Below, one piece after another: positions 8,176 through 32,005 of a stretch of 64,000 bases of DNA. The notes beneath the pieces are model-generated. The model was not told the DNA's origin. It searched no databases and was given only the letters and a program-made list of their open reading frames with translations. This DNA is from Escherichia phage KKE7M. How positions within the stretch are numbered: position 1 is the first letter of the stretch; each line of letters starts with the position of its first letter. The stretch is from sequence record PQ356295.1; one strand, 5' to 3'. The translations under genes were made by a program, and so were the position numbers.

Positions 8176-9147
8176 ATGGCAGATTCTATTTCAGCAAAAA
8201 TTATTGCACACTCTCAAACATCTGAAGGTAAGGATATTGTTACCTTTGAACTTGAATATCCTCGAATCATTCACTCTGAATTGATGACGCATCGTTTGTT
8301 TTCTCGTAATGCTGCATCAAGTCGAGCTATCCCTGTTAAAACTCTAATTGAAATGGTACGGCAATCTCCAGCACGTCCTTATCGTTTTGGTGCTAACCAA
8401 CCAGGTATGCAAGATAAAGGCACAGATCACGATGCCCTAATTGATGCAGGTTACACTGCAAAAGAATGGTGGGACTTGGCTGCACTAAGTGCTGCACGTT
8501 TTGCAGAAGAGTTTGCCCTTGCTGGTTATCATAAACAGGTTGCAAACCGATTACTAGAACCATTCCAGCGTATGAAGACTGTAGTAACCACTACAGAGTT
8601 AGAAAACTTCTTGTGGTTGCGCGTAGATGCTGATGCAGATCCTACTATTGAGGCTCTTGCTAAAGAAATTAAAAAACTGTATGAATCTTCTGAACCATAT
8701 CTTCTTTTCCCAGGGGAGTGGCATACACCTTACGTTAATCGTGATCGAGATCCAGAAACTGGTATGATCCGTTATTTCTTGGGTGAAACCTTCTCCAACG
8801 AGAAAATGTTGACAGAAGACGAAGCAAAAGCTATTTCAGCTTCTTGTTGCGCTCAGGTAAGTTATCGTAAGTTGAATGATACTAAAGATAAAGCATTGGA
8901 TATCTATTCTCGTTTGCTGTCTGGACAAAAGGTACATGCATCTCCGTTTGAACACCAGGCAACGCCAATGAAAGAAATGGATTTGTCAGGATTAAAACAA
9001 CAGAAAGGTGGTATTAATATTCCTCCGTTCCCTTCCTCTTGGGAAGAAGGTATTACACATATGGATCGTAAACATCGTTTGTGGAGTGGAAACTTCTGCG
9101 GTTGGATTCAACATCGTCAACTTTTGACTAACCATACAAAATGGTGA
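8176..9147 (+). CDS. thyX: flavin-dependent thymidylate synthase ThyX
   Basis: ELMTHRLFSRNAASSR (ThyX RHR-x7-S-like motif) and HASPFEH. Confidence 0.7.
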   Translation: MADSISAKIIAHSQTSEGKDIVTFELEYPRIIHSELMTHRLFSRNAASSRAIPVKTLIEMVRQSPARPYRFGANQPGMQDKGTDHDALIDAGYTAKEWWDLAALSAARFAEEFALAGYHKQVANRLLEPFQRMKTVVTTTELENFLWLRVDADADPTIEALAKEIKKLYESSEPYLLFPGEWHTPYVNRDRDPETGMIRYFLGETFSNEKMLTEDEAKAISASCCAQVSYRKLNDTKDKALDIYSRLLSGQKVHASPFEHQATPMKEMDLSGLKQQKGGINIPPFPSSWEEGITHMDRKHRLWSGNFCGWIQHRQLLTNHTKW

Positions 9148-16581: not shown

Positions 16582-17136
16582 ATGATTCAAGCAACAAAAA
16601 TCGAAGACTTGTTGATCATTCAACCTGACGTTTATGGAGATGAACGTGGCTTTTTCTTAGAAAGTTTTAATCAGGCTTTATATGATCAATACATAGGTAA
16701 ACAAAACTTTGTCCAAGATAACCATTCACGTTCTATCAGAGGAGTTCTACGTGGGCTTCATTTTCAAAAGAAAAACCCACAAGGGAAGTTAGTACGTTGT
16801 GTTCGTGGTGAAGTTTATGATGTTGCTGTAGATATTAGGGTTGGTAGTCCAACATTTGGAGAATGGGTAGGTGTTCTCTTATCTGAAAAGAATAAAACAC
16901 AATTTTGGATTCCTCCTGGTTTCGCTCATGGCTTTGTTGTGATTAGCGATATTGCTGATTTTGAATACAAATGTACAGAATATTACGATCCGACTTCAGA
17001 GTGTAGTCTTGCGTGGAATGATCCAGATATCAATATAGATTGGGGTTTTGATTTAATCTTTAATGATATTAATTTTAAACCTATCTTGTCACAAAAAGAT
17101 CAGGAAGCCAAAACACTAAAGGAGATCATATTTTGA
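16582..17136 (+). CDS. rmlC: dTDP-4-dehydrorhamnose 3,5-epimerase
   Basis: 184 aa; RGLHFQ and FVQDNHS cupin motifs. Confidence 0.85.
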   Translation: MIQATKIEDLLIIQPDVYGDERGFFLESFNQALYDQYIGKQNFVQDNHSRSIRGVLRGLHFQKKNPQGKLVRCVRGEVYDVAVDIRVGSPTFGEWVGVLLSEKNKTQFWIPPGFAHGFVVISDIADFEYKCTEYYDPTSECSLAWNDPDINIDWGFDLIFNDINFKPILSQKDQEAKTLKEIIF

Positions 17137-17963
17137 CAAAATTTTTAGTCTTTGGTTCAAAAGGTCAATTAGGACAGTCTTTGGCAAAAGTTGCGCCAGA
17201 AGATGTTATTTTGATTGAAGCAAGTGATGTAGACATTACCAACTTTAAAGATGTTATGGATAGTCTTGTACAACATATGCCTGATGTTGTTGTGAATTGT
17301 GCGGCTTACACGGCAGTAGATAAAGCGGAAGAAGATGTTAACACCTGTATAAATGTTAATGCATACGGTGCAACAAACATTGCCAAAGCATGTAATGATT
17401 TACTGATACAGTTTGTACATATTTCAACAGATTATGTTTTTGATGGGAATGTTGCTGGCACAGAAGATAGTAAAACAAACCCCTTGAACATCTACGGTTA
17501 CAGTAAACAATTAGGTGAAACTTTAGTACAAACAGTTTGTCCTACAGCACTTATTATCAGAACAGCTTCTGTTTATAGTGAATTTGGACATAACTTTTTG
17601 AAAACTATGTTGGAACGCTACAACGGTGGTCAAAAAGAATTTAATGTAGTGTGTGATCATTTATCATGTCCTACTTATGCACCTGATCTTGCAGAAACAA
17701 TTTTTAAACTTGTAAAAGATGGTGTAAATAGTAAAATTGTACACTATGCAGGTGCAGATTATATTTCTTGGTATGATTTTGCACGAAAGATATTTCTTGT
17801 TATAGATTTATCTGTTACAGTTAATCCTGTATCTGCTTCAACCTATAATTCAAAAGCAGTCAGACCAGCAACATCTTATTTAAAAACAGATCCTACTTTA
17901 AATCCGCGAAGTGTTGATAGCGGTATTGTAAGAACTTTAACTATACTTTTAAACAAGGAGTGA
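17133..17963 (+). CDS. rmlD: dTDP-4-dehydrorhamnose reductase
   Basis: TTG start overlapping rmlC stop; FGSKGQLGQ Rossmann motif; operon context. Confidence 0.85.
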   Translation: MTKFLVFGSKGQLGQSLAKVAPEDVILIEASDVDITNFKDVMDSLVQHMPDVVVNCAAYTAVDKAEEDVNTCINVNAYGATNIAKACNDLLIQFVHISTDYVFDGNVAGTEDSKTNPLNIYGYSKQLGETLVQTVCPTALIIRTASVYSEFGHNFLKTMLERYNGGQKEFNVVCDHLSCPTYAPDLAETIFKLVKDGVNSKIVHYAGADYISWYDFARKIFLVIDLSVTVNPVSASTYNSKAVRPATSYLKTDPTLNPRSVDSGIVRTLTILLNKE

Positions 17964-18925: not shown

Positions 18926-19678
18926 ATGGGAAATAAAACCGCAAAGGCTCGTCGTCAATCAGCAGCCAATGATGACAAACGTGCCAGTCGTTATGCGGCT
19001 AAAGCAGTAGGAAATGATGATTACCGTCTTGATGAATTTACCCCTATTGGGAATCAAGAAGCTATTGTAAGAAGCATGGTTTGGAATGACTTAACCATTG
19101 TTAATGCCCCAGCAGGAACAGGAAAAACAACAACAGCACTATGGAAAGCATTGCAAATGCTTAAAGCTGGTGACTTCAGAAAGTTGATTTTCCTTAAAAA
19201 CCCGACAGAAGTAGGTGATGATCAAATTGGTTTCTTATCTGGAGATAAGACTGATAAACTAGCAGCACACTATGAATCAACTAAAAGAATTTTCCAACAG
19301 TTTATGACTGCAAATAAATTGGAAAACGATATTGCAAGTGGCAAAATTGAACTTAATATTCCAAACTATGCACTAGGTGCTACGTGGGATAACAGCATTA
19401 TTCTTATTGATGAAGTTCAACTTATGTCACCAAATACAGTAAAACTTCTCCTTGAGCGAGCAGGTCTTAATACACGTATTGTCATTATGGGCGATGTTAA
19501 TCAAACATATGCAATTAAACGAAGAGCTAATGGGTTAGGTGATTTGTTAGATCGTGTTGTTCCTATTAACGAAGAAGGAGAAAGGGAAGCTATTGTAGAT
19601 TTTATTGGTTATGTTGAAATGACAACTGCTGATAACCAACGTTCCCGTTTGTCTCAGTTCATCACGGAAGTATATTAA
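18926..19678 (+). CDS. phoH: PhoH-like ATPase
   Basis: Walker A NAPAGTGKTTTA, Walker B ILIDEVQ. Confidence 0.9.
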   Translation: MGNKTAKARRQSAANDDKRASRYAAKAVGNDDYRLDEFTPIGNQEAIVRSMVWNDLTIVNAPAGTGKTTTALWKALQMLKAGDFRKLIFLKNPTEVGDDQIGFLSGDKTDKLAAHYESTKRIFQQFMTANKLENDIASGKIELNIPNYALGATWDNSIILIDEVQLMSPNTVKLLLERAGLNTRIVIMGDVNQTYAIKRRANGLGDLLDRVVPINEEGEREAIVDFIGYVEMTTADNQRSRLSQFITEVY

Positions 19679-19714: not shown

Positions 19715-20206
19715 ATGACGCTAATTGAGATTGATCGCAATGGTATTGATGAATGCTATCAAGCTGGCTTAGTTAAGCCGAATGAGTTTAGACAGATTTA
19801 TATTGACAAGATTGAAAAAGAAATATCTCTTCGTTTAGAGAACATGACAACTTTGCAAAAAGTTCAGATGTTTTTTAGTTGGTTGAAAGGGGAGGATTGG
19901 CTAACTAAATATTACCAGGAATTATCTGATAGTCAAGAAGGCTTGTTTGAGTGTATAATAAATGTAGCTGGGTCTAATTCAGAATTACTCCTGATCGATG
20001 AAGAAGATTGTAAACTTCTTTTTCTTAGCAGCATCTTTCACAAGAAATCTATGTTAGTAAGAAATTGCAGTGATTTACTAAATCATCCACTAACAAGAAC
20101 TAATAAAATTCTTGTGGATAAAGAAACACTAAGAGCTATTGATTACCTCCGTAAATATGTAAGCGGTGGTAAAGCAGTCCTTAAAACACTACAGGAGGAA
20201 GTATAA
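19715..20206 (+). CDS. hypothetical protein (163 aa)
   Basis: ORF; stop overlaps next start. Confidence 0.5.
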   Translation: MTLIEIDRNGIDECYQAGLVKPNEFRQIYIDKIEKEISLRLENMTTLQKVQMFFSWLKGEDWLTKYYQELSDSQEGLFECIINVAGSNSELLLIDEEDCKLLFLSSIFHKKSMLVRNCSDLLNHPLTRTNKILVDKETLRAIDYLRKYVSGGKAVLKTLQEEV

Positions 20207-20859
20207 TGACAACAATTATTGCAACACGTAACAAAATTCTGTCTGACGGTAAGGTAACAGTAGGTAGTCGTGTAGACACTTTAAATTTCAAGAAAGTGCG
20301 TAAAATTGGGGACTACCTTGTTGGTGGTGCAGGACGTCTGTCTTCTATCCTGACTTTCTTTTCTTGGTTTGAACAAAACTTACAATGCCAGGCAGCACAA
20401 GAGACAATCCCAGGTTTGGTGATCCAGTCAGATCCCGATAAAGAAGATGAAGAGTTTGTGGCATTGGTTGTTCACCCAGACGGTAAAATTTATATGCACG
20501 AGGGTAATAATCCAACTCGAGCATATCCTTTAACTGAAGATTATTATGCAGTTGGTAGTGGGGCAGATTTTGCTTTAGCAGCTTTAGATGCTGGGGCAAC
20601 CCCGGAAGAAGCGATGGAAGTTGCAAAACTACGAGATGCTTTTTCAGGTGGTGAAACTTTTGTCGAAGAGATCGAAGAACAACTGGAGTTAACAGCGGAA
20701 GATATTCTGAACTTCAGCAAGGAGCAACTAATTAGTATGCTGTTGACTGGTGATCCTGATAGTGATGAAGCTGAAAGTATTTTAGCAGAAATGAAAGAAT
20801 CACAAGAAAAAGTATTGACAGTCTCTGAAAAACTTGATAAAGTATCCTCTGATAATTAA
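20206..20859 (+). CDS. HslV-like Ntn-hydrolase peptidase with acidic C-terminal tail (217 aa)
   Basis: N-terminal MTTII (Thr after Met), GGAGRLSS and YAVGSGADFALAALDAGAT glycine-rich segments like HslV. Confidence 0.45.
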   Translation: MTTIIATRNKILSDGKVTVGSRVDTLNFKKVRKIGDYLVGGAGRLSSILTFFSWFEQNLQCQAAQETIPGLVIQSDPDKEDEEFVALVVHPDGKIYMHEGNNPTRAYPLTEDYYAVGSGADFALAALDAGATPEEAMEVAKLRDAFSGGETFVEEIEEQLELTAEDILNFSKEQLISMLLTGDPDSDEAESILAEMKESQEKVLTVSEKLDKVSSDN

Positions 20860-20899: not shown

Positions 20900-21328
20900 A
20901 TGTTACCAGTACCTGTAATATTTGTAGAAAAAGCCTACTACTCTTTAGAACAAAACTGTAAAAGAGCTAAAAATTTTATTGAAAGTTTAGCAGAACAACG
21001 TTACACTGTATCTAAAAAGGGATGGTTTAGAAATTCACAATATTTAGTCAACCCTTTCGGAGAAGTTCGTGTGTTGTACGGCAACACAGAAAACATCTTA
21101 GAAAGAATGTTAGAACTAGATAGGATCTCCTCCTGTGATTATCAACTGTTGAAATTTTACGATGTGTCAGAAAACATTAAAAACTTTCTTGACGATTTGT
21201 CTAAACGAAAAACAGAAGAAGATACAATACCAGTATCTATGGAAGAATTAACGTTCTTAAGAGATATTATGGTTTTTGAAGAAAACCCTGAAATTACAAA
21301 AGAGGAGATTTTAAGTAGTGGCAAATAA
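20900..21328 (+). CDS. hypothetical protein (142 aa)
   Basis: ORF with AGGAGG RBS. Confidence 0.5.
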   Translation: MLPVPVIFVEKAYYSLEQNCKRAKNFIESLAEQRYTVSKKGWFRNSQYLVNPFGEVRVLYGNTENILERMLELDRISSCDYQLLKFYDVSENIKNFLDDLSKRKTEEDTIPVSMEELTFLRDIMVFEENPEITKEEILSSGK

Positions 21329-21827
21329 GTATGATCGTCCACCAACTGATTACTATCCTACTCCACAAAAATGTATAAATGCATTATTTAGTGTAATAGA
21401 TTTTAATAACCTTAAAGAAGAAGGTTTTATTTTTGCAGAACCGTGTAAAGGCGCTGCTGCTGCAATTTATCAACATTTTCCAGAAGGATCAGAATATTGT
21501 GAGTTAGAAGAAGGGAAGGATTATTTTAACCACGAATGGCATACTAAGCCGGATATTATAATCACAAATCCACCATTCAGACTTGCACTTGAGTTCTTGC
21601 AAAAGAGCTTAAAAGAAGCAGACGTTTGCATATACTTGTTGCGTCTTGGGTTCCTAGAGTCTATTAAACGAAGGGAATTCCATAAACAGAATCCACCAAC
21701 AAATTTGATTGTTCTCTCTGAACGACCATCTTTTGTTGCAGGTGGCACTGACAAGACAGCATATGCTTGGTACGTCTACGACCCAAAAAACAGGCTGGGT
21801 TTAACTCAACCTTTCTATTTTGTTTAA
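21318..21827 (+). CDS. minimal SAM-dependent methyltransferase-like protein (169 aa)
   Basis: YYPTP...FAEPCKGAAAA...DIIITNPPF resembles gamma-class amino-MTase motifs X, I, IV; no target-recognition domain. Confidence 0.4.
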   Translation: MANKYDRPPTDYYPTPQKCINALFSVIDFNNLKEEGFIFAEPCKGAAAAIYQHFPEGSEYCELEEGKDYFNHEWHTKPDIIITNPPFRLALEFLQKSLKEADVCIYLLRLGFLESIKRREFHKQNPPTNLIVLSERPSFVAGGTDKTAYAWYVYDPKNRLGLTQPFYFV

Positions 21828-21840
21828 GAGGAGCATTTTT

Positions 21841-22071
21841 ATGACCGAGAAATTTATTGTTACTATGGAACTCACCTTTGATGAAGAAGATTTTGATCTT
21901 CACGTATCAACTAAAGCAGATAACATTCACACAACACAGAGTGTTGCAATCGCTATGTTCTTTAAACAAGCAATTGCAAAACAAGCTGAAGTGTGTGCTG
22001 GTTTAGCTGTAGAGTATGCAGAAGTTGTCAAGGTTCTTGAAAATGCTCGTAACAACGATTGGGAAGAATAA
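21841..22071 (+). CDS. hypothetical protein (76 aa)
   Basis: ATG 21841 after AGAGGAG. Confidence 0.4.
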   Translation: MTEKFIVTMELTFDEEDFDLHVSTKADNIHTTQSVAIAMFFKQAIAKQAEVCAGLAVEYAEVVKVLENARNNDWEE

Positions 22072-22274
22072 TGGCATACAATTACTATCTGGTATATTTT
22101 AACGAAACTAAGAAAAAAGACACAGGGACTAATGTTTATGCGGAATCCGAAGAACACGCAAAAGCTATTGGTTCAGTGCTTCTTTCTAGAATAGCAGGTG
22201 AAGAAATTCCTGTAGAAGCTATCTTTGCAGAAGTTGATCCTGGTATTCAAGAAGATGATATTACCACTACTTAA
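22071..22274 (+). CDS. hypothetical protein (67 aa)
   Basis: ATG 22071 overlapping upstream stop. Confidence 0.4.
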   Translation: MAYNYYLVYFNETKKKDTGTNVYAESEEHAKAIGSVLLSRIAGEEIPVEAIFAEVDPGIQEDDITTT

Positions 22275-22331
22275 CTGTTGACTTTAACGTTAAGGTAGTG
22301 CATACTTCCTGTAACAGAACAGGAGGGTATT

Positions 22332-22994
22332 ATGAAGTTTGTACTGTATCATCGACTTTCTAAGAAGAAACAACAAGGCAACCAGTATGGTATAGAATCA
22401 CAGGAAGCAGATATCCAACGCTTCCTGGATTCACAAGAAAATTATACTATTGTAGGTAGCTTTGCAGAGTTTTATTCTGGTAAAGGCGATTGGAAGCAAC
22501 GTAGAGAGCTTGTAAAAGCTGTTAATCTTTGCAAAGAAACAGGTGCTACACTTGTTGTTGCTAAGGTTGACCGTCTTGGACGTAACACAGCTTCTGTTGC
22601 AACCTTGTTAGAGATGATTAATGTACGAATAGCAACGATGCCCTCCGCTGAAAATATGATAATAAATATTTTAGCAGTTCTGGCAGAAGAAGAGGCTCGT
22701 GCAATATCGGATCGTGTTAAGAAGAGCCTTAAGGTAGCAAAAGCGAAGGGAACGCTTCTTGGTGCAGCAAACCCTAAATACAAAAGAACAGATTATACGA
22801 AAACGGAAGAAGCAAAACGCTCAAAAGAGTTTGCGCTTTCTTTAAAAGATTCTTTAGTTGCATACAGGGCTTGTAAAACGCCATATATGACGATTGCAAA
22901 GCATCTGAATGAATCAGGAAAGAGAACTATTCGTGGGAGTTTGTTCGATGCCAAAGCGGTACAACGTCTTTGTGCAAAATTGAATATTAAATAA
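22332..22994 (+). CDS. small serine recombinase (resolvase/invertase family)
   Basis: YHRLSKKKQQ...ESQ catalytic Ser region, LVVAKVDRLGRN motif, C-terminal HTH-like segment. Confidence 0.65.
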   Translation: MKFVLYHRLSKKKQQGNQYGIESQEADIQRFLDSQENYTIVGSFAEFYSGKGDWKQRRELVKAVNLCKETGATLVVAKVDRLGRNTASVATLLEMINVRIATMPSAENMIINILAVLAEEEARAISDRVKKSLKVAKAKGTLLGAANPKYKRTDYTKTEEAKRSKEFALSLKDSLVAYRACKTPYMTIAKHLNESGKRTIRGSLFDAKAVQRLCAKLNIK

Positions 22995-23003
22995 GGAGGA
23001 AAC

Positions 23004-23207
23004 ATGGCAGTTCAATCTTTTGAGGAGACTGTTAAAAAACAATTCCTATCGAAGCGAGCGATGGTTGAATTTTTGCATTTTCTCGAAGTAGATAGGGTAC
23101 TTATTGAGACTACACCAGATGGTAACTGGCAAGTCTCGTATATTGCCACCAGGCATATCGTAGACAGTACGAAAGAAGAAATTTCGGAAGTTACGGTTGC
23201 TAGTTAA
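23004..23207 (+). CDS. hypothetical protein (67 aa)
   Basis: ORF with AAGGAGG RBS. Confidence 0.4.
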   Translation: MAVQSFEETVKKQFLSKRAMVEFLHFLEVDRVLIETTPDGNWQVSYIATRHIVDSTKEEISEVTVAS

Positions 23208-23218
23208 AGGAGTTAAAT

Positions 23219-23791
23219 ATGCGTTTAGCTTTTAACGGGAAGATAAGCACAGCAAACATATTATCAGCAATAGGATTATTAGGTAAAAAATTCACACCTT
23301 TCAGTTTACCCGTTTGTGTAGATTTTGATCATGTATTTGATATTAATAATCCTTCACGTTGTATCGCCAGAAGTAATATTGATAACCCAAGTGAAAATCT
23401 GTTTTATATTACTAAACCATCCCAAGCAATTTTGAATCAATGGGAAGCAGGTCTGATTAAACCAGGTAAATATTTTGCATTACTACCTTGTAAATCATTG
23501 GCTATAGAGGACAGTCTAAACTATGCAAACAATCTTATTGTTACAGCATTCATTGTCTCAGAAAAAGAAGAAACTGCGGCACTTGCAAACACTGTTAAAT
23601 CTTTGTATGATTCTTTGGGTGTTACTTACACTACATTCGTTTGTGAAGATATTCCTCATTGCGTTGAATTTGTAGTAAATGGTGTAACTGTATGTCGTGT
23701 AGAAACAACGCAAGATGAGGACGTTTTTATTACTGTAGCCGATGTAATATCTGAACCTGTGTTTAGTTACGCAGTTTCATTAACACATTAA
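23219..23791 (+). CDS. hypothetical protein (190 aa)
   Basis: ORF with AAGGAG RBS. Confidence 0.5.
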   Translation: MRLAFNGKISTANILSAIGLLGKKFTPFSLPVCVDFDHVFDINNPSRCIARSNIDNPSENLFYITKPSQAILNQWEAGLIKPGKYFALLPCKSLAIEDSLNYANNLIVTAFIVSEKEETAALANTVKSLYDSLGVTYTTFVCEDIPHCVEFVVNGVTVCRVETTQDEDVFITVADVISEPVFSYAVSLTH

Positions 23792-23801
23792 GGAGAAGGG
23801 G

Positions 23802-24128
23802 ATGAAAATAACGACAGAACAGGCTTTAATAGACAAAGGAAGGGAAATCTTAGAAAGTCATTTGGAGGATATTCAAAGGACTCCAGGGTATCTCGGCTGG
23901 CGTATACAAGAAGCCGTCGATTTTCTACCCCGAAAAAATAAAGAGATTGAGGTAAGATCTCTATTCCTCCTTGTTAAAGTAGATGGTGACGCTATATACA
24001 AAGATGTAGCGTCTCACATTGAACAAATAGAAGAAAAAGCCTACAAAGAATTTGCAGATCTTGTTGTAGAACATAATATAGAAGGTAAAGTTAATATCTT
24101 TATACTTATGGATTTTGAGGAGAATTGA
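23802..24128 (+). CDS. hypothetical protein (108 aa)
   Basis: ORF with AGGAGAAGG RBS. Confidence 0.5.
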   Translation: MKITTEQALIDKGREILESHLEDIQRTPGYLGWRIQEAVDFLPRKNKEIEVRSLFLLVKVDGDAIYKDVASHIEQIEEKAYKEFADLVVEHNIEGKVNIFILMDFEEN

Positions 24129-24871
24129 TGCTAGTATATCAAGAAATTAGTGTAAAAGATGATCAAGACCTGTTTATTATTGGTGATTTACATGGTTGCT
24201 TTGATTTGTACCAGAAAGGTGTTAATACTTTAGGTATCCGAGATCAAGATGTTGTTGTATCTTTAGGAGATCTTACAGATCGCGGCAAGCAGAATTTTCG
24301 TTGTACCGTTGAATTCACCAGAAAGCTAAATCGCTATGGTATTCGTGGAAATCACGAAGATATGATGATTAAAGGGTTGCTAGAAGGTGATAGACGATAT
24401 TACGAATGTTGGTTTCAGAACGGAGGCCATACAGTTCTAAATGAGTGTGGAGAAGAAGGTGCAACTGCTCTTGCTTTGATGCTAGAAGACTTACCTGTTG
24501 TACTTGTTGTCAATTATCGTAATATGAAACTAGGCTTTATTCACGGAGGATATCCTTCAGTTTTGGAACATCTGCCAGTGACGGAAGTTTTGCCATTTTG
24601 TTCGAATATGAATAAAGAACAAGTATCTCGATTCACAGAATCTTTAATGTGGGATCGTGATATGATAGATTGCGCCCTTGAAGGGATTCTTCTTCCTAGA
24701 GTTTCAGGAGTAGATTATGTATTTCACGGGCATTCTTATGTTCCTAAACCTGTGATTAGCAGTAATAGGGTATATATGGATACAGGATCTTGCTTCAATG
24801 GTAATTTAACCTTTGCATATTTTGATGATTCAAATACGTTACAATTTTATTCTACTTTAGAGGAGGACTAA
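24128..24871 (+). CDS. Ser/Thr protein phosphatase (calcineurin-like metallophosphoesterase)
   Basis: GDLHGC, GDLTDRG, GNHE motifs. Confidence 0.85.
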   Translation: MLVYQEISVKDDQDLFIIGDLHGCFDLYQKGVNTLGIRDQDVVVSLGDLTDRGKQNFRCTVEFTRKLNRYGIRGNHEDMMIKGLLEGDRRYYECWFQNGGHTVLNECGEEGATALALMLEDLPVVLVVNYRNMKLGFIHGGYPSVLEHLPVTEVLPFCSNMNKEQVSRFTESLMWDRDMIDCALEGILLPRVSGVDYVFHGHSYVPKPVISSNRVYMDTGSCFNGNLTFAYFDDSNTLQFYSTLEED

Positions 24872-25191
24872 TGTATAAAGTCACAATTAAAGAGACGGTA
24901 GGGAATATTACGAAAGAAACTACTATTGAAACAGAAGATGTTGAGTTAGTCAAAGAGCTTTTATTTCCAAAACCAGAAATAAAAGATAATGACGAACAGT
25001 TGGATGAAGATAATGAGACAGCAAGGGATAAATGGAAGAAACAACTAGCGGAGATTTGGAAAAAGCCTCAAGTAACGCCTCCATTTGATCCTCGTACACC
25101 TTATAATCCCTGGGAAATTGGAAGCCCTTGGTATACGTATCCTATTACTCCAATTGTTACTCCTAATATTATTCCCAATATTACTTGTTAA
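24871..25191 (+). CDS. hypothetical protein with Pro-rich C-terminus (106 aa)
   Basis: ORF overlapping upstream stop. Confidence 0.4.
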   Translation: MYKVTIKETVGNITKETTIETEDVELVKELLFPKPEIKDNDEQLDEDNETARDKWKKQLAEIWKKPQVTPPFDPRTPYNPWEIGSPWYTYPITPIVTPNIIPNITC

Positions 25192-25201
25192 GGAGAAAAC
25201 C

Positions 25202-25780
25202 ATGAGCGATTTATTCTACACAGGTGTTGGTAGCAGAGACATTACAGACGAAGAATGGGACACTATGGTAGCTGTTGCAAAATGGTTATCTACATGGTTC
25301 ATTTTGCGATCTGGTAAAGCAGAAGGTGCAGATTCCGCATTTGAATGCGGGGTATATGATAGTGGAAACAATACAAAGAAAGAAATATACATTCCTTGGC
25401 CTTCGTTTAAAGGTAATGAGATAGAGGGAGAGGTTATTGTTCTTGACAGACCCGATAGTGTAAACTATGCTCTAACTTTGCAATATGCAAAAGAATTGCA
25501 TCCAGCTTGGGACAGATTATCTCAAGGTGCTAAAAAATTACATCAAAGAAATATCCACCAAGTTCTTGGCAGAGATCTTGAGAATCCAAAACCATCTTGT
25601 TTTCTTTTAGCTTGTGCAAATACAGATAAGAATGGAGATCCTTTAGGTGGTACAAGAACAGCTTGGATGTTGGCTAAAAAGTTTAATGTTCCTTGTTTTA
25701 ATATTCGAGGTAAAAGTAAAAAACAAATCTTCGAATTTATTAAACCTATTTTAGAGGAGAATGGTCTTGTCCAGAAATAA
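25202..25780 (+). CDS. Rossmann-fold LOG/DprA (SLOG)-like protein (192 aa)
   Basis: ATG 25202 after AAGGAG; GVGSRD and PLGGTRTAWMLA (PGGxGT-like) motifs. Confidence 0.4.
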   Translation: MSDLFYTGVGSRDITDEEWDTMVAVAKWLSTWFILRSGKAEGADSAFECGVYDSGNNTKKEIYIPWPSFKGNEIEGEVIVLDRPDSVNYALTLQYAKELHPAWDRLSQGAKKLHQRNIHQVLGRDLENPKPSCFLLACANTDKNGDPLGGTRTAWMLAKKFNVPCFNIRGKSKKQIFEFIKPILEENGLVQK

Positions 25781-26285
25781 TATAAGTGTCATTAAAGATA
25801 GCTTTATTGATGTAACAAACGATATTGTACCTACAATACAATATATAGTTGAGGCACAAGGTTTAAACTTCATACGTGATAAAGTTAAGATTGTTTTTCA
25901 TAACACTCCAGGTTTTGTAATAGTAGGTTCAACAGAAACGATGTATCCTACAGATCTGATCACTTTAGACAAAAACTTAACACAAGAAGAAGTAGAAATT
26001 CTTAACCTCTATTGGTTAGGTTTTAAAAGATATGAGGATACAGCTTTATCCCGAATGTCAACTATTTTAGCTAATATTCTGGTGCGGAAAATTTCTAAAA
26101 TATGGGATGAAGAAAACCCAGATGAAATAATTTTACACTTTGCTAAACCGGAAGACGGGGCATATGATATAGACACATCTGAAATGGCTTATGGGTTTAT
26201 TATTTCTGGTAATGTATTACAGATGGAATCTTTATTGTATGTTGAGACAGTAAAACACAATAACAATTACGAGGAGGTTGTATGA
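25761..26285 (+). CDS. hypothetical protein (174 aa)
   Basis: ORF. Confidence 0.5.
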   Translation: MVLSRNNISVIKDSFIDVTNDIVPTIQYIVEAQGLNFIRDKVKIVFHNTPGFVIVGSTETMYPTDLITLDKNLTQEEVEILNLYWLGFKRYEDTALSRMSTILANILVRKISKIWDEENPDEIILHFAKPEDGAYDIDTSEMAYGFIISGNVLQMESLLYVETVKHNNNYEEVV

Positions 26286-26539
26286 AAGGTTTAGAGTTTA
26301 ACTTTGTAGATGCGTGGGAAGGATGGGATGAACTAGGAGTAGGGGATTTATGTTTTTATGATGTTACCTTGAAGGAAGAATACAAACATCTAGCTCCTAG
26401 TGAAGATTGCGATGTGATTCTATCTATTCTATTAAGTCAGTCTATAGTGCAATTCGATTTCTTAAAAGGTAGTGAATGTATTGAAAGTAAAGCATTCCGT
26501 TTGGAAGTTTCTCTTGGTGAAGAAATTCCTGTAGAATAA
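26282..26539 (+). CDS. hypothetical protein (85 aa)
   Basis: ORF overlapping upstream stop. Confidence 0.45.
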   Translation: MKGLEFNFVDAWEGWDELGVGDLCFYDVTLKEEYKHLAPSEDCDVILSILLSQSIVQFDFLKGSECIESKAFRLEVSLGEEIPVE

Positions 26540-26541
26540 TA

Positions 26542-26565
26542 TAAACCCGCTTCGGCGGGTTTTTT
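26542..26565 (+). terminator. rho-independent terminator (AAACCCGC-TTCG-GCGGGTTTTTTG)
   Basis: Perfect hairpin with T tract; same hairpin family recurs at 31648 and 58113. Confidence 0.7.
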
Positions 26566-26594
26566 GTTGACAACACCAGTTTTTTCGAATAAAC
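26566..26594 (+). promoter_or_regulatory. sigma70-like promoter TTGACA-N17-TAAACT
   Basis: Immediately after terminator, upstream of gene at 26622. Confidence 0.5.
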
Positions 26595-26621
26595 TACAGA
26601 AAAACAGAAGAGGAGATTAGC

Positions 26622-27035
26622 ATGTACTATAGTGACTATTTTGTAAACCCAACAAAAGAACAACTTCAATCGGCAGTGGATAAGATGCAGATTGTAGTTA
26701 AAGAATGTGAGAAAATAAGAAAACAACTACAAGAAGAAACTGTTGTTGTTAATAAATGGTTTGGTCTTAGAAAGAAGGTTGTTAGTAAACACAATATCAT
26801 CCTTGAAAAAGCAAAAACGACAGGGACTAGTTACGCCTTACAAGGCTTGTTGCTAAATTACATTGATATAGAACAACATTCTCTTCTGCACTGTTGGCTT
26901 CACAGTCCTAGTATTGAGGATCTCTTGTTCTGGTTGTCGTGTGAATCTGTACTTTTAAACGAAAATGAGGCTTACCGTTTAAACTTCTGCCTTAAGGCAG
27001 AGTTACCAGCTAGTGTTAAGGAGAAGAAGCAATAA
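26622..27035 (+). CDS. hypothetical protein (137 aa)
   Basis: ORF with GAGGAG RBS. Confidence 0.5.
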   Translation: MYYSDYFVNPTKEQLQSAVDKMQIVVKECEKIRKQLQEETVVVNKWFGLRKKVVSKHNIILEKAKTTGTSYALQGLLLNYIDIEQHSLLHCWLHSPSIEDLLFWLSCESVLLNENEAYRLNFCLKAELPASVKEKKQ

Positions 27036-28024
27036 TGAAAGTTTTAAGTCTTTTTGATGGTATGTCAGGAGGAATGCTTGCACTAAAAAGCGCAGGTATT
27101 GAAGTAGATAAGTATTATGCCTCAGAATTGGACAAATTTGCCATAGCTGAAAGCCAAGCCAATTTTCCAGATATTATTCAATTAGGTGATGTTACAAAAT
27201 GGAGAGAATGGGATATCCCGTGGGGAGAAATTGATCTTTTGTTAGGTGGTAGCCCGTGCCAAGGCTTCTCTTCTTCTGGTAAGGGTTTGAACTTTCAAGA
27301 TCCGCGATCTAAACTGTTCTTTGAATATGTTGAAATTCTTGAACATATTAAAAAGTTTAACCCTAATGTTAAGTTCATGCTTGAAAACGTTAAGATGAAG
27401 GTGGAGTGGGAAAACGTGATCACAAGTTACTTAGGTGTTGATCCCGTATTCATTAACTCCGCAGATTTCACGGCACAGAATAGGCAACGTTTATACTGGT
27501 GCAATTGGGAAATAAAACCTTGGGATATTACCAATGAAGTGTTGCAAGATATCATTGAAGATGATAGTATCGTAGACAGAGATAAGGCTTATTGCATAGA
27601 TGCAAATTATGCCAAAGGTGGTAATATAGAACAGTATTTTGAAAAGAGTCGCAGACAACTGGTTTTTTATCCGGCAGCAATATATGGGCGTAGAATTAAT
27701 GAAAATGGCAAACGTAGTACATCTAAAACTGATCGTTTGGTACATTGTTTGGAAGTTCAGGACAGTGAAAAAACTCGTTGCCTCACGACTGTGCCTAAAG
27801 ACGTACTACTAGCTTACATTCCACCTGGAAGATATCTAGATGCCTTTGAAAAATTGAGTGAAGGCGTACATTATAGAAAGTTAACGGTTAAAGAGTGTTG
27901 CCGCTTACAAGGTGTTCCAGATGATTACTTTAAAGTGAGTAGTAACACACAAGCATATAAGATGTTAGGCAATGGTTGGACTATACCTGTCATTGCGCAT
28001 ATTCTTAAATCTATGGAGGAATAA
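27035..28024 (+). CDS. DNA cytosine-5 methyltransferase
   Basis: LSLFDGMSGG (motif I), GGSPCQGFS (PCQ motif IV), ENV (motif VI), C-terminal LGNGWTIPVI. Confidence 0.85.
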   Translation: MKVLSLFDGMSGGMLALKSAGIEVDKYYASELDKFAIAESQANFPDIIQLGDVTKWREWDIPWGEIDLLLGGSPCQGFSSSGKGLNFQDPRSKLFFEYVEILEHIKKFNPNVKFMLENVKMKVEWENVITSYLGVDPVFINSADFTAQNRQRLYWCNWEIKPWDITNEVLQDIIEDDSIVDRDKAYCIDANYAKGGNIEQYFEKSRRQLVFYPAAIYGRRINENGKRSTSKTDRLVHCLEVQDSEKTRCLTTVPKDVLLAYIPPGRYLDAFEKLSEGVHYRKLTVKECCRLQGVPDDYFKVSSNTQAYKMLGNGWTIPVIAHILKSMEE

Positions 28025-28147
28025 TGGAAACATTGTGGAAAGGCTGGAAGACTGCTCTGATAGCTTTTATAATTCCATTAACTTTTCTTGGTTGGTGTTT
28101 TTGGGAATTTATCTTTTGGGTAATTTCCCATATACATTGGGGGTAAT

Positions 28148-28759
28148 ATGACTCAAAAAGTTGCATATCAAGTAGATCGTGAAGATGGTGAAGGTAGCGT
28201 TGTAGTTTTTGATACACATGGTCTTGCAGCAAGACGCAGAGGCGCTTGTCTATTGGACATTGGTGGTGAAGATGAATACTGCACTGTACGTAGAGTAAAA
28301 GAATTTGATCAATACGCTGAAAAAGGTTTTGTACCTGCAAAAGCACTATTAGAAGCTGGATGGTGGATACCTAGTGCACATGATTATGATATTTTGGAAT
28401 CAGATACAGACGAGTTTAACAGTGAAAATTTTGTTTTCTCTCTGGATGAAAAATGCGTTTGGAAAGATTGGGATGAAATGGAACGCCATGCTTATTTTAT
28501 AAACGAAGCATTAGATCGTAAAACTTGGTTTGAAAATACAGTTAAAGCAGCGTATCCTCAATTTACTTTTACAGAGTTTTGGGGTGGCCCACACCATATT
28601 ACTCATGTGGCATACTTCGAGTTCCCAGGCTCACGCTATAAAGGTACTGTCTACTGGGATTGGGACGAGGACAAAGAACCTTCTGCTCAAGACTTCCGTT
28701 GCTATGTTTGTCAAGGTGATCAAGAAGCCCTTGACAAGTACCTTAAAAGTCTGGTATAA
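28148..28759 (+). CDS. hypothetical protein (203 aa)
   Basis: ORF. Confidence 0.5.
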   Translation: MTQKVAYQVDREDGEGSVVVFDTHGLAARRRGACLLDIGGEDEYCTVRRVKEFDQYAEKGFVPAKALLEAGWWIPSAHDYDILESDTDEFNSENFVFSLDEKCVWKDWDEMERHAYFINEALDRKTWFENTVKAAYPQFTFTEFWGGPHHITHVAYFEFPGSRYKGTVYWDWDEDKEPSAQDFRCYVCQGDQEALDKYLKSLV

Positions 28760-28775
28760 TCCGTAAAACTTAACC

Positions 28776-28800
28776 AAAGCCCCAAGCAGGGGCTTTATTT
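28776..28800 (+). terminator. rho-independent terminator
   Basis: AAAGCCCC-AAGCA-GGGGCTTTATTT. Confidence 0.6.
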
Positions 28801-28813
28801 GTCTGGAGGATAT

Positions 28814-29347
28814 ATGGGTTTTGATGACATGTTATTATATGAGGAGGCTTGTGTGAAAGAAGCTATGGCTTTACCAGTTTTATCTATTGATATTACAACA
28901 GTAGACACTTTTTCAGATTGTGAAACGTGTGGATCGTATTCATCTATTGTACATGAAGTCAGTGGGGATTTAGGCACTTACGAAGATGGAGATTATGCAA
29001 GTTGTTTAGGTGATAATCGAGATGGTGAAGTGGCGAATGTTGCAAACTGGATCGCTTCTAAGTTAAAAGAAAGAAATCGTCCGTTCCCTAATCTTCTTAC
29101 ACCAGAATCTATGCTTAAAGCTGAACAAGAGATGGATGACTATGGTTATAAAGTAGATTATGACTATAATGATCCTACTTATAAAAAATTGAGTGACAAG
29201 TATTGGGAACTAGCTAATGCTTATGATAAATACTACTCTACAGAAAACATTGTTAAATTATTTTTAGATTTTGGAGTAGAAATTAATTGGGATTTCGAAG
29301 AGGAAGAGCGTTACGATGCATCTTATTGGGAGGACGAGGGTGAATGA
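28814..29347 (+). CDS. hypothetical acidic protein (177 aa)
   Basis: ATG 28814 after GGAGGA. Confidence 0.5.
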   Translation: MGFDDMLLYEEACVKEAMALPVLSIDITTVDTFSDCETCGSYSSIVHEVSGDLGTYEDGDYASCLGDNRDGEVANVANWIASKLKERNRPFPNLLTPESMLKAEQEMDDYGYKVDYDYNDPTYKKLSDKYWELANAYDKYYSTENIVKLFLDFGVEINWDFEEEERYDASYWEDEGE

Positions 29348-30084
29348 TAGAACGAAAACCCTTACCAGATAGAGATTACTTGTTATCAAGGTTTAGTGTG
29401 GAGAATGGTCGTCTTGTTTGGAAACCTAAACCTTCTACAACAAAAGAGAACAAAAGGTGGAATAGCAGATACGCAGGGAAGATTGCAGGGACTATTGATA
29501 AAGTTGGTTACTCTCATGTCAAAATAGATGGTATTGTATATTTGGAGCACAGAATTTGTTTTAAAATGTATCATAATTACTGTCCAGATGTTATAGACCA
29601 TGACGACGGCAATAAACTTAATAATGCGGAAAGTAATTTATTGGATAGTAACTATTTATTAAATAATAACAATAGACACGTAGATGGGTTAGAAGGTATT
29701 TATGAAAAGGATGGTGTTTTTCTTTGGGTTATAAACTACAACCAAGAAACTTTCTCTGTTTCAGGTTTCAAAACTAAAGAGGAAGCTACTGTAGCTAGAG
29801 CTTTAGCAAAACAAGAAATTTTGAAAGGATCTTATATCAAAAAAGAAAAGAAGCGTATAGATAACACTTCAGGATTAAGTTGTGTGTTTGTGGCAACAAG
29901 AGAGAGAACATTCTTTTTCAAGTTTGTGTTTGACAAGACCGCTTATTGCAAATATGGTTTCAACGATCCAGAGAGATGTGCTATAGCTCTGGAGAAGTTA
30001 AGGTTGAAGGTGATGAAAGAAAAATATAAACCTGCAAATAAAAGCATTTGCGAAAAATATAAGGAGGAGATTTATGCCGCGTAG
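29344..30084 (+). CDS. HNH endonuclease-like protein (HNH_3-type, 246 aa)
   Basis: GYSHVKIDG...LEHRI...VIDHDDGNKLNNAESNL pattern. Confidence 0.5.
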   Translation: MIERKPLPDRDYLLSRFSVENGRLVWKPKPSTTKENKRWNSRYAGKIAGTIDKVGYSHVKIDGIVYLEHRICFKMYHNYCPDVIDHDDGNKLNNAESNLLDSNYLLNNNNRHVDGLEGIYEKDGVFLWVINYNQETFSVSGFKTKEEATVARALAKQEILKGSYIKKEKKRIDNTSGLSCVFVATRERTFFFKFVFDKTAYCKYGFNDPERCAIALEKLRLKVMKEKYKPANKSICEKYKEEIYAA

Positions 30085-30889
30085 AGTCATATTCATAACT
30101 GGCGCAGGACTATCTGTGGATAGCGGTATCCCAGCTTTTAGAACAGATACTTCTTCAGGGGAGGCGTTATGGTCTTCTTATGATCTTTCTGAGGTCTGTG
30201 ACATTTTCAACTTCCGTGATGGTTATCAGCAAGAACAAGGTGTTCTTGATGCTATGGGTGGTTTAGATGCGGAAGGATATAACCTCTACCGTAAAACTCA
30301 CGACTTTTACAATAAACGTCGCGTGGAATTAGCGAAAGTTGACCCGAATCCAGCACATCTTCAGATTGGAGAATGGTTCAAAAAATATGGCCCAGAACGA
30401 ATTCTTAACATTACTACTAACGTGGATGACCTCCTTGAACGAGCAGGAGTAAATAGGGAAGAAGTGCTACATGTGCACGGTTTTCTTCCTGAAATTACTT
30501 TTCAAAGAAAAGCTGGACAACCTACAATTGTAAAAGATGTTGGTTATCAAGCCATAGATGTAGATGACTACCATTATGTAAAACCTAATGTAATTTTCTT
30601 TGGAGAAGCTGCTCCACTTTACACAGATATGTATCATATTCTTGATACACTAACGGCTCAAGATATGGTTGTAGTAGTAGGATGTTCAAACCAAGTTATC
30701 AATTTTAATTGGGAATTATTCCCTGCACTTAATATGGGTACAAAAATGATCGTTGTTAACCCAGGAATTAATTACGAAGAAACTCTTCTTTACGAAGATA
30801 GAGGAGTCTTTGTTTATCGAGAAAAGGCCGCAGATGCTTTTAGCAATCCTGCTTTCATAAAAATGATAGAAGATCATTTGACTAAATAA
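30074..30889 (+). CDS. SIR2-family (sirtuin-like) protein lacking zinc-binding cysteines
   Basis: GAGLSVDSGIPAFR, NPAH, TTNVDDLLERAG, HVHG, VIFFGE, VVVGCS, VVNPGIN match sirtuin motifs; no CxxC...CxxC module. Confidence 0.75.
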   Translation: MPRRVIFITGAGLSVDSGIPAFRTDTSSGEALWSSYDLSEVCDIFNFRDGYQQEQGVLDAMGGLDAEGYNLYRKTHDFYNKRRVELAKVDPNPAHLQIGEWFKKYGPERILNITTNVDDLLERAGVNREEVLHVHGFLPEITFQRKAGQPTIVKDVGYQAIDVDDYHYVKPNVIFFGEAAPLYTDMYHILDTLTAQDMVVVVGCSNQVINFNWELFPALNMGTKMIVVNPGINYEETLLYEDRGVFVYREKAADAFSNPAFIKMIEDHLTK

Positions 30890-30896
30890 CTTAACC

Positions 30897-30920
30897 AAGG
30901 GGGCGAAAGCCCCTTTTCTT
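30897..30920 (+). terminator. rho-independent terminator
   Basis: AAGGGGGC-GAA-AGCCCCTTTTCTT. Confidence 0.65.
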
Positions 30921-30933
30921 ATAGGAGAATATT

Positions 30934-31191
30934 ATGACCACAGAACAAATCGTTAAAGACCATTTTATGATGCACTACGTTTATTACTTCAATAATAATC
31001 AGCAGAAAGGTGAGGGATTTTGTTATCTATCCGCACAACAAGGTTTTGGTATCCGTCAAGCAGATATTAACGGGGCAGTAGCTGGGATTACAAAAGGCTT
31101 GGTTGCAAACCTTAAAGATAATGTTGTTGTTGTCCCAACGTGCATTTCTTATCTCTCAACCTGTCCTGAAGAAGATTTTATGCATTCCTAA
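30934..31191 (+). CDS. hypothetical protein (85 aa)
   Basis: ORF with AGGAGA RBS. Confidence 0.45.
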   Translation: MTTEQIVKDHFMMHYVYYFNNNQQKGEGFCYLSAQQGFGIRQADINGAVAGITKGLVANLKDNVVVVPTCISYLSTCPEEDFMHS

Positions 31192-31257
31192 AACCTCCTG
31201 TAACGCATTCTAACGCACTTTTTATTTTAGTAATACGTTTCCCTACCTTATGCAAAC

Positions 31258-31293
31258 AAAAGCCCCTAGAAGCGATTCTAGGGGCTTTATTTT
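31258..31293. terminator. bidirectional terminator at convergence of plus and minus gene blocks
   Basis: AGCCCCTAGAA-GCG-ATTCTAGGGGCT hairpin flanked by A and T tracts. Confidence 0.65.
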
Positions 31294-31366
31294 AGTCTTC
31301 TGTAAAATATCCTATGACAACAATGATAAAGATGATTAACACTACAATACTCTCTAATAAAGTCAT

Positions 31367-31588
31367 CTATAGATCTCGTTCATATAGTTCAATTATCAAT
31401 TCATCCTCTGCTGTTATCGTACCAATTTGCCAAGTGTGAAGATAAACCTCTGTATAAGAGTGTATCTTACTATCTAACAAGCACAGCCACGTATTGTTGC
31501 TTACCTTTTCTTGAATATGAACCTTAACCACGAAAGGGTGAGGGTTATCTACTAAGAAACCAATACTACCTTCTACAACTACAGACAT
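31367..31588 (-). CDS. hypothetical protein (73 aa)
   Basis: ORF, minus strand. Confidence 0.45.
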   Translation of the reverse strand: MSVVVEGSIGFLVDNPHPFVVKVHIQEKVSNNTWLCLLDSKIHSYTEVYLHTWQIGTITAEDELIIELYERDL

Positions 31589-31647
31589 AATACCTCCTAT
31601 TGTTTATGCTAAAAGTGTTTATAACATATAAAGAGCATATATACAAG

Positions 31648-31667
31648 AAAACCCGCCGAAGCGGGTT
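31648..31667 (-). terminator. terminator hairpin AAACCCGC-CGAA-GCGGGTTT
   Basis: Downstream of minus gene ending 31674; T tract on minus strand. Confidence 0.55.
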
Positions 31668-31673
31668 TATGCG

Positions 31674-31997
31674 TCATACAATGTGTTTTGTTTTAACGTG
31701 CGAAGATTTAAAAATCTTGTTATGTAATGAAATACGATTATCACGGAACACATAATAGTTAGCAACATCTGGTTTATCAACACAGAGTGTAGCCACAACT
31801 TTCATAGGTATAGATACATTCTCACGAAGAGTAACACTACCTTTCAAACGTTCAGATGAAATGTGAATCAAACCTTCTTTTTCATCAATGATGACTTCTT
31901 TAACATTTTTGAAATTATAACAAGAGTTATCAATATAAGACACCCTTGCTTTTGTTTGCTTCTGTTTAGGACGAGAACCAGTGTTTATTTTTTGCAT
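31674..31997 (-). CDS. hypothetical protein (107 aa)
   Basis: ORF, minus strand. Confidence 0.5.
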   Translation of the reverse strand: MQKINTGSRPKQKQTKARVSYIDNSCYNFKNVKEVIIDEKEGLIHISSERLKGSVTLRENVSIPMKVVATLCVDKPDVANYYVFRDNRISLHNKIFKSSHVKTKHIV

Positions 31998-32005
31998 AGT
32001 TTTCC

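Follow-up and report, generated by a model that had tools for sequence, protein, structure and literature searches.

Two probable orphan DNA methyltransferases of a phi92-like coliphage, one of them a 169-residue protein with a predicted bare catalytic core

Two genes lying 5.2 kb apart in Escherichia phage KKE7M (PQ356295.1) raise the question of what a virulent coliphage would do with DNA methyltransferases of its own, and of how one of them, only 169 amino acids (aa) long, could read a target site. The window, by which we mean the whole stretch of 64,000 nucleotides (nt) that was analysed, encodes a minimal N6-adenine-type DNA methyltransferase at 21318-21827 (+) and a C5-cytosine DNA methyltransferase of 329 aa at 27035-28024 (+). 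An earlier note, made from the letters alone, had placed two methyltransferases here, and both open reading frames (ORFs) are indeed present and intact. We consider it quite probable that they are two independent orphan DNA methyltransferases, with which this phi92-like phage marks its DNA as it replicates.

Around both genes, a 7.1-kb region matches 55 phage records at 98-99% identity, and 53 of them cover at least 80% of it, the closest being Escherichia phages Antha, alia and PaulScherrer (BASEL Bas60). The window belongs to a phi92-like coliphage of the genus Justusliebigvirus, subfamily Stephanstirmvirinae, with myovirus relatives of ~145-150 kb. Neither methyltransferase gene is new: dozens of public phage genomes carry them with annotations, which the earlier note had missed, as it had the experimental test of an orthologue of the small enzyme (PMC12548924). 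For example, the GenBank record of PaulScherrer names bas60_0202 a 'putative N6 adenine methyltransferase' and bas60_0189 a 'Dcm-like C5 cytosine methyltransferase', and the record of phage alia labels both genes 'DNA methyltransferase'. A literature search on methylation in phi92, phAPEC8 or Justusliebigvirus returned annotation-level statements only.

The small gene starts with GTG, contains no ATG in frame and shares 11 nt with the ORF before it; a Shine-Dalgarno-like AAGAGGAG at 21300-21307 (+), read from the sequence, stands 10 nt before the start. Its 19.6-kDa product matches phrog_799 'DNA methyltransferase' over residues 2-163 (E 1.7e-56) and is the orthologue of bas60_0202, phi92 gene 056 and bas51_0176. 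The motifs follow the gamma-class order X, I, IV (T15-P16, E41-A48, N84-F87). T15-P16 of D-x-Y-x-T-P (21360-21365, +) is motif X-like and aligns with the YFTP of HsdM, T15 being invariant and P16 nearly invariant in our family alignment (A1). E41-P-C-K-G-A-A-A48 (21438-21461, +), with E41 and P42 invariant, forms motif I, the loop after strand 1 that binds S-adenosylmethionine (AdoMet). D68-Y69 (21519-21524, +) is motif III-like, and D79-I-I-I-T83-N-P-P-F87 (21552-21578, +) comprises strand 4 and the catalytic motif IV. The catalytic (D/N/S)PP(Y/F/W) signature is thus present, and in 45 family members T83, N84, P85 and P86 never vary; residue 87, an F in the window protein, is nearly invariant and is Y in the Vequintavirus and Seunavirus orthologues. 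The full set of family invariants is T15, E41, P42, T83-N-P-P86, F93, R118, R136-P137, F139, D145 and D155. The earlier note had read the gamma-like motifs TP, EPCKGAAA and NPPF in this order in a protein too short for a recognition domain, and the motifs lie as it placed them, while the structural model is a bare core.

This model, predicted with a mean local distance difference test score (pLDDT) of 91, has the class I AdoMet-dependent Rossmann fold and most resembles the gamma-class DNA adenine methyltransferases and METTL5. The fold-comparison scores were 13.2 for PH1948 (138 residues aligned), 13.0 for METTL5 (140), 13.0 for the methyltransferase domain of MmeI (159 of 169), 12.7 for M.TaqI (142), 12.1 for M.BseCI (146) and 11-12 for type I HsdM subunits (~150-156). 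Because 159 of the 169 residues align to the catalytic domain of MmeI alone, and the protein ends 82 residues past NPPF, no C-terminal target-recognition domain is present. A predicted fold alone cannot separate a DNA from an RNA substrate. The family profile, compared with the sequences in the Protein Data Bank (PDB), found type I HsdM of StySJI best (E 0.0085), through Y-x-T-P, (D/E)P-x-C-G and NPPF. Sub-threshold Pfam matches were to EcoRI_methylase in 41 of 45 members, then to MTS, N6_Mtase, Dam and Eco57I; none of the curated models PF02384, PF07669 and PF13651 was reached, EcoRI_methylase, for instance, scoring 13.4 bits where 26.4 are required.

The experimental anchor is the orthologue in phage Bas51. 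A 2025 study in PLoS Biology found every Bas51 escaper of the retrons Asa1 and Squ1, which this enzyme triggers, to be mutated in the N6 adenine methyltransferase; engineered D69G, D79G or T83P abolished the triggering of the defence, and nanopore sequencing detected N6-methyladenine (m6A) at GATC in wild-type phage DNA and its near-complete loss in T83P (PMC12548924). Bas51 is phage WalterGehring (MZ501111), and bas51_0176, annotated as an N6 adenine methyltransferase of 177 aa, lies five genes from a 'putative glycosidase' that was likewise mutated in escapers. The window protein is 47% identical to bas51_0176 over 161 aa (BLASTP, E 8e-46), and D69, D79 and T83 of bas51_0176 align to D68, D79 and T83 of the window protein, residues that are invariant or nearly so in the family. 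Both small genes stand in the order PhoH - protease - methyltransferase. The Bas51 enzyme differs in coming from the Vequintavirinae, in an N-terminus 4 aa longer, in NPPY instead of NPPF and in a short C-terminal tail, and GATC specificity and retron triggering have been shown for this enzyme only. The product of the window enzyme is, by orthology, most likely Gm6ATC. GATC is not avoided in the window, with 317 sites observed against 279 expected (O/E 1.14).

A direct sequence search with the 169-aa protein gave no match in Pfam, NCBIfam (E<=0.01) or PDB chains; leads came from profile and fold methods only. A word-indexed search found 237 homologues, all of 95-203 aa and none with a Pfam domain, and an exhaustive profile search over 1.84 billion representatives returned 13,939 clusters at E<=1e-3, of which 7,085 reach E<=1e-10, the best 150 clusters being nearly all 160-260 aa. 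Members overall span 156-260 aa; therefore, the 169-aa length is the family norm rather than a truncation. By tblastn the family is present in 494 isolated phages, including phi92, phAPEC8, rV5-like Vequintavirus, Seunavirus and phages of Klebsiella, Erwinia, Vibrio and Aeromonas. Some members carry a CxxC...CxxC (zinc-ribbon) insert within loop 133-148, between R-P-S-F and T-D, and the Seunavirus and Avunavirus members have a charged C-terminal tail of ~55 aa; both may be add-on DNA-binding elements. The variants can be found in records L009/L010 (2432-3112) and in alignment members P0077, P0088, P0100, P0106 and P0117. On metagenomic phage contigs the family gene sits within replication modules, where other DNA methyltransferases adjoin it in 3 of 6 contexts and a nuclease never does. 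A partner gene conserved beside it, able to take over DNA recognition in the manner of HsdS or TRMT112, was sought and not found at the examined loci, where the neighbours differ: the gene upstream is a 142-aa ORF in the window, a ClpP-like protease in Vequintavirus and one of various ORFs in the metagenomic contigs.

The second gene encodes a complete C5-cytosine methyltransferase, the orthologue of bas60_0189. It scores 150.5 bits against PF00145 (cut-off 22; E 1e-43; model positions 1-323 of 324) and 141 bits against TIGR00675 (cut-off 100.65), and all of its motifs are in place: FDGMSGG at residues 7-13, PCQ at 74-76, ENV at 117-119, QNRQR at 148-152 and GNG at 312-314. P74-C75-Q76 (27254-27262, +) is motif IV with the catalytic cysteine and aligns with the SPC motif of DNMT3A. 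Between motif VIII, QNRQR, and motif IX, from R281, lies a variable region of ~125 aa (156-280; 27500-27874, +), the presumed target-recognition domain, which falls outside the PDB sequence alignments that cover both conserved ends. The nearest solved structures by sequence are the catalytic domains of DNMT3A/3B (E ~4e-24) and HaeIII and HhaI (E 1e-22). The earlier note called the enzyme canonical Dcm-type, which holds for its completeness but only loosely for Dcm: against the E. coli Dcm subfamily (NF007772 / PRK10458, CCWGG) it reaches 29.5 bits where the cut-off is 710, and only a C-terminal motif aligns. PADLOC placed type II methyltransferase models as its best matches and, overall, gave generic type II and orphan methyltransferase matches only. 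It is a complete type II-like orphan enzyme of PF00145 outside the E. coli Dcm subfamily.

At >=95% identity the C5 gene is confined to phi92-like phages (54 records), and the next relatives, about 50% identical, are in Vibrio phages including ICP1, the jumbo phages phAPEC6, CBB and K64-1, and a Roseobacter phage; a literature search on the ICP1 homologue returned nothing on specificity. In phAPEC8, of the sister genus, the flanking genes are kept and the slot holds an unrelated 227-aa ORF without a Pfam match; this ORF, phAPEC8_0075, was considered as a degenerate methyltransferase and rejected (tblastn E 0.59). Because the small gene is kept across Stephanstirmvirinae and Vequintavirinae and the C5 gene only within the phi92-like genus, the two are unrelated, independent acquisitions and not a pair. 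Neither belongs to a type II restriction-modification (RM) system with an adjacent cognate endonuclease, as no nuclease gene adjoins either methyltransferase in the window or at the related loci.

In BASEL, Bas60-62 and the Vequintavirinae were challenged with six RM systems, two each of type I, type II (EcoRI and EcoRV) and type III, and were judged 'exceptionally susceptible' and without 'any effective protection' (PMC8594841); therefore, the protective value of methylation would be narrow, limited to the enzymes' own sites. In this study, site avoidance was compared between the whole window and phAPEC8 1-50000. In the window, AAGCTT occurs 0 times against 19 expected, GGWCC once against 18 and GGCC 21 times against 66, and there are no occurrences of GGATCC, CTGCAG, CCATGG or CAGCTG. 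In phAPEC8, the counts are 47 against 46 for AAGCTT and 18 against 23 for GGWCC, and its avoidance of GTAC (0.35) is stronger than that of the window (0.70). Such strong, lineage-specific avoidance suggests that the sister genera met different host restriction enzymes, and the phage genome relies on avoidance of restriction sites, a strategy different from methylation. As a general strategy, the anti-restriction by methylation that the earlier note suggested finds no support, given the susceptibility of the relatives and this avoidance; methylation may still give a narrow protection of the enzymes' own sites. Its statement that the phage DNA contains ordinary cytosine has fared better: it is consistent with a thymidylate synthase of the divergent ThyX type at 8176-9147 (+) (PF02511, 37 bits over residues 22-170 of 323), with the restriction sensitivity of the relatives, and with the result that no ThyA-family hydroxymethylase, TET protein or glycosyltransferase was found near the gene in the window examined.

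How the two enzymes would act can be outlined as follows. The gamma-class mechanism of M.TaqI is established and serves as the model for placing AdoMet and adenine in the small enzyme. By this analogy, the small enzyme would be a catalytic-core-only N6-adenine DNA methyltransferase in which AdoMet is held by E41-PCKG (motif I), E62 and D68, and the adenine to be methylated flips into the T83-N-P-P-F87 pocket, where F139 of the R-P-S-F loop probably stacks on it. Because there is no recognition domain, GATC would be read by loops of the core. The most likely DNA contacts are in loop 133-148 (S-E-R136-P-S-F139 ... T-D145; 21714-21761, +), through R136, F139 and D145; we propose this loop because the family conserves it, no other structured part of the model has so low a confidence, and the zinc ribbon of some relatives is inserted here. 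The enzyme would make Gm6ATC on phage DNA faster than the host Dam can follow. In the C5 enzyme, Cys75 would attack C6, E117 would protonate N3 and the ~125-aa variable region would read the site. The benefit is probably narrow, namely protection from nucleases that cut the enzymes' own unmethylated sites, and GATC methylation would perhaps also give escape from MutH or SeqA. The cost would be that such methyltransferases can trigger retron defences: besides the Bas51 case, a phage C5 methyltransferase has been found to trigger retron Ec86. A methylated genome is, in addition, open to attack by methylation-dependent nucleases.

The resemblance of the fold to METTL5 and PH1948 makes it necessary to consider whether the 169-aa protein is instead an N6-adenine methyltransferase of ribosomal RNA (rRNA) or transfer RNA (tRNA), such enzymes being small, free of a recognition domain and dependent on a structured RNA or a partner protein. 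We regard this as very improbable. The Bas51 T83P change removes m6A from GATC sites of phage DNA (PMC12548924), which, together with the orthology, settles the question of DNA or RNA for the family. The profile also favours DNA enzymes (HsdM, E 0.0085, against METTL5, E 0.3), as do the sub-threshold Pfam matches, which are mostly to DNA methyltransferase families; the DNA enzymes align over more residues (MmeI 159, METTL5 140), the family gene clusters with DNA methyltransferases in other phages, and the conserved partner gene was not found at the examined loci. That the protein is a DNA adenine methyltransferase of different or relaxed specificity in this phage, short and degenerate or nearly non-specific, deserves more weight, and we still think it unlikely. 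In its favour are the missing recognition domain, the identity of only 47% to the tested orthologue, the toxicity of that orthologue in Dam+ E. coli (PMC12548924), the variable inserts of the family (zinc ribbons or ~55-aa C-terminal tails), and the existence of non-specific adenine methyltransferases in phages and prophages, such as Hia5, Hin1523 and M.EcoGII (PMC3299994, PMC5778455). Hia5 and Hin1523 themselves were rejected as relatives, being 281-aa, Dam-like alpha-class proteins with DPPY and a divergent recognition region (PMC5778455/PMC3299994). The Bas51 logo, however, shows GATC sharply, without a diffuse signal (PMC12548924); extensive non-specific m6A would protect from EcoRI (GAATTC) and EcoRV (GATATC), to which the relatives are highly sensitive (PMC8594841); and the window protein and the Bas51 enzyme closely resemble each other in the core and the 133-148 loop. 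The stronger claim that the small enzyme and its family are fully sequence-specific GATC methyltransferases by the Rossmann core alone, through the core loops (133-148) or a dimer, we hold as a tentative proposal that may well fail.

It may also be asked whether both enzymes exist mainly for protecting phage DNA against host restriction enzymes, the textbook role of orphan phage methyltransferases (Murphy et al. 2013, as cited in PMC12210895). The site counts would fit self-methylated sites, since GATC, GCGC, CGCG, CCWGG and GCWGC are unavoided and GGCC, CCGG, GGWCC, AAGCTT and others are strongly avoided. Against this, GCGC, CGCG, CCWGG and GCWGC are also unavoided in phAPEC8, which has no C5 gene, the host Dam and Dcm already account for the tolerance of GATC and CCWGG, the phages are exceptionally RM-susceptible in the BASEL tests (PMC8594841), and methylation has its cost through retron triggering, so that we find this purpose doubtful as the main one. 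It is hardly credible that the C5 enzyme starts a hypermodification (5-methylcytosine, TET oxidation, glycosylation) or is a CmoX-like carboxymethyltransferase, possibly tied to the dTDP-rhamnose genes. Such pathways do exist in phages (PMC8256090, PMC12783734), and dTDP-rhamnose synthesis genes are present in the genome; yet a Pfam search of the ten neighbouring ORFs of the C5 gene revealed no TET/JBP, glycosyltransferase or CmoA-like protein, the rhamnose genes occur in phAPEC8 without the C5 gene, and the relatives are restriction-sensitive. The explanation by two self-marking orphan enzymes has to be weighed against observations that count against it. The specificity of the window enzyme is carried over from Bas51 at 47% identity and may differ. 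The Bas51 host is Dam+, and the link from gene to GATC is one point mutant. The toxicity of the Bas51 enzyme upon expression in E. coli sits uneasily with strict GATC specificity, given that the cells are Dam+, and may point to a looser specificity. The pI of the 169-aa protein, 5.8, is on the acidic side, an uncommon property in proteins that bind DNA without a dedicated domain. To these must be added the BASEL verdict on the relatives and the result that site avoidance in the window, compared with phAPEC8 as a phage without the C5 gene, pointed to no target for the C5 enzyme. In sum, the interpretation given by the earlier note is partly supported.

The transcriptional setting of both genes was predicted from consensus matches. 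A sigma-70-like promoter match, TTGACA-17-TAAAGT with a TG extension (20815-20843, +), lies upstream of the ORF at 20900-21328 and the small gene, although promoter-like sites in the region number 45 against 41.8 expected from shuffles, which is no excess. Terminator-like sites number 15 against 7.0 +/- 2.9 in shuffles. The C5 gene lies in a compact cassette (26543-28796, +) with a terminator-like hairpin at each end. The first hairpin resembles an intrinsic terminator (26543-26562, +; 8 bp, 5 GC, T-run) and would close the preceding unit; directly after it, a sigma-70-like match, TTGACA-17-TAAACT (26567-26595, +), stands ahead of the C5 unit. A 137-aa ORF (26622-27035, +), with a weak homologue in phAPEC8 (24% identity), is translationally coupled to the C5 gene by a TAATG overlap, in which the ATG start of the C5 gene overlaps the stop codon of that ORF. 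The second hairpin (28776-28796, +) would end the unit ORF137 - C5 methyltransferase - ORF40 - ORF203. A perfect consensus, TTGACA-18-TATAAT, was seen at 28731-28760, just before this second hairpin.

The accessory genes around the methyltransferases include PhoH (18926-19678, +), an HslV-like peptidase (20206-20859, +), a NinI-like phosphatase (24125-24871, +), a DprA-like/SLOG protein (25202-25780, +; phrog_768, no Pfam match) and Sir2 (30074-30889, +). ORFs 23219-23791 and 28799-29347 (+) are called 'aminoacyl-tRNA synthetase' in relatives and are without a significant Pfam match. A serine recombinase or DNA invertase is encoded at 22332-22994 (+) in this virulent myovirus (PF00239, E 8e-22; phrog_125), and its phAPEC8 homologue, 57% identical, lies in a different place on the opposite strand (phAPEC8 16633-17295). 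An HNH homing-type endonuclease ORF (29344-30084, +; phrog_99, E 6e-33; weak PF13392; within the stretch 29332-30560) is found between the aminoacyl-tRNA-synthetase-like ORF and the Sir2 gene, whose start it overlaps; it is absent at the corresponding place in PaulScherrer and alia, and the 5' part of Sir2 beside it has no blastn match to PaulScherrer. The ORF and the unmatched Sir2 part look like a pattern typical of a recent homing event. The GC skew changes from ~+0.2 to ~-0.2 at ~31 kb (window ~30000-32000), coinciding with the switch of gene strand from + to - and with a strong terminator at 31259-31288. The window also holds a full rmlABCD-like dTDP-rhamnose set (in the region corresponding to 23524-26784 of the relative record L002), which BASEL calls 'a putative dTDP glycosylation machinery' (PMC8594841). 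Four records that are 98% identical to the coliphage region (MG065639, MG065645, MG065656 and MG065689) are labelled 'Campylobacter phage' with the host C. jejuni; the probable reason is a mistaken host label or contamination with coliphages.

As a discovery, these genes are of low importance, the biology of orphan phage methyltransferases being well trodden. What remains of interest is how a 19.6-kDa core-only protein attains GATC specificity, and a very large family for which Pfam and NCBIfam offer no curated model and of which one member alone has been tested by experiment. Because the family has no curated model, annotation pipelines often call its members 'hypothetical', for example in phAPEC8 and several other records. 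If reading of GATC by the core alone proves true, it would be a recognition mode without structural description among DNA methyltransferases, and the enzymes would rank with the smallest that modify DNA at specific sites and would offer a compact means of placing m6A at chosen targets. For phage therapy and work on defence, such enzymes would predict liabilities as well as benefits.

Compared with the gamma-class enzymes M.TaqI, M.EcoRI, the MmeI domain and HsdM, the 169-aa protein is one third to one half their size, without the C-terminal recognition domain, the N-terminal helical domain or the HsdS-binding helices. With the rRNA m6A enzymes METTL5 and PH1948 it shares the fold without significant sequence similarity (E 0.3-0.9), so it does not group with them by sequence or by an RNA substrate; they act on RNA, and METTL5 needs TRMT112, whereas the Bas51 orthologue acts on DNA. 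Like EcoDam and T4 Dam of the alpha class and the small phage Dam proteins of PF05869, it is an orphan with probably the same product, Gm6ATC. The PF05869 proteins are similarly small, and one of them shares a metagenomic phage contig with a member of the small-enzyme family; PF05869 was tried as a relative and rejected (hhalign probability 6.9%, 29 columns around NPPF aligned; sub-threshold matches in 12 of 45 family members), and a literature search for papers on PF05869 and HP1 Dam returned nothing. The classical Dam enzymes and PF05869 differ from the small enzyme in sequence family and motif order, and EcoDam and T4 Dam have a recognition domain. The C5 enzyme has all the hallmarks of the ten motifs, in common with M.HaeIII, M.HhaI, DNMT3 and the phage K42 Dcm, and shares the 'SLFDG'-type motif I with DNMT3; the K42 Dcm is shorter (711-bp gene) and specific for CCWGG.

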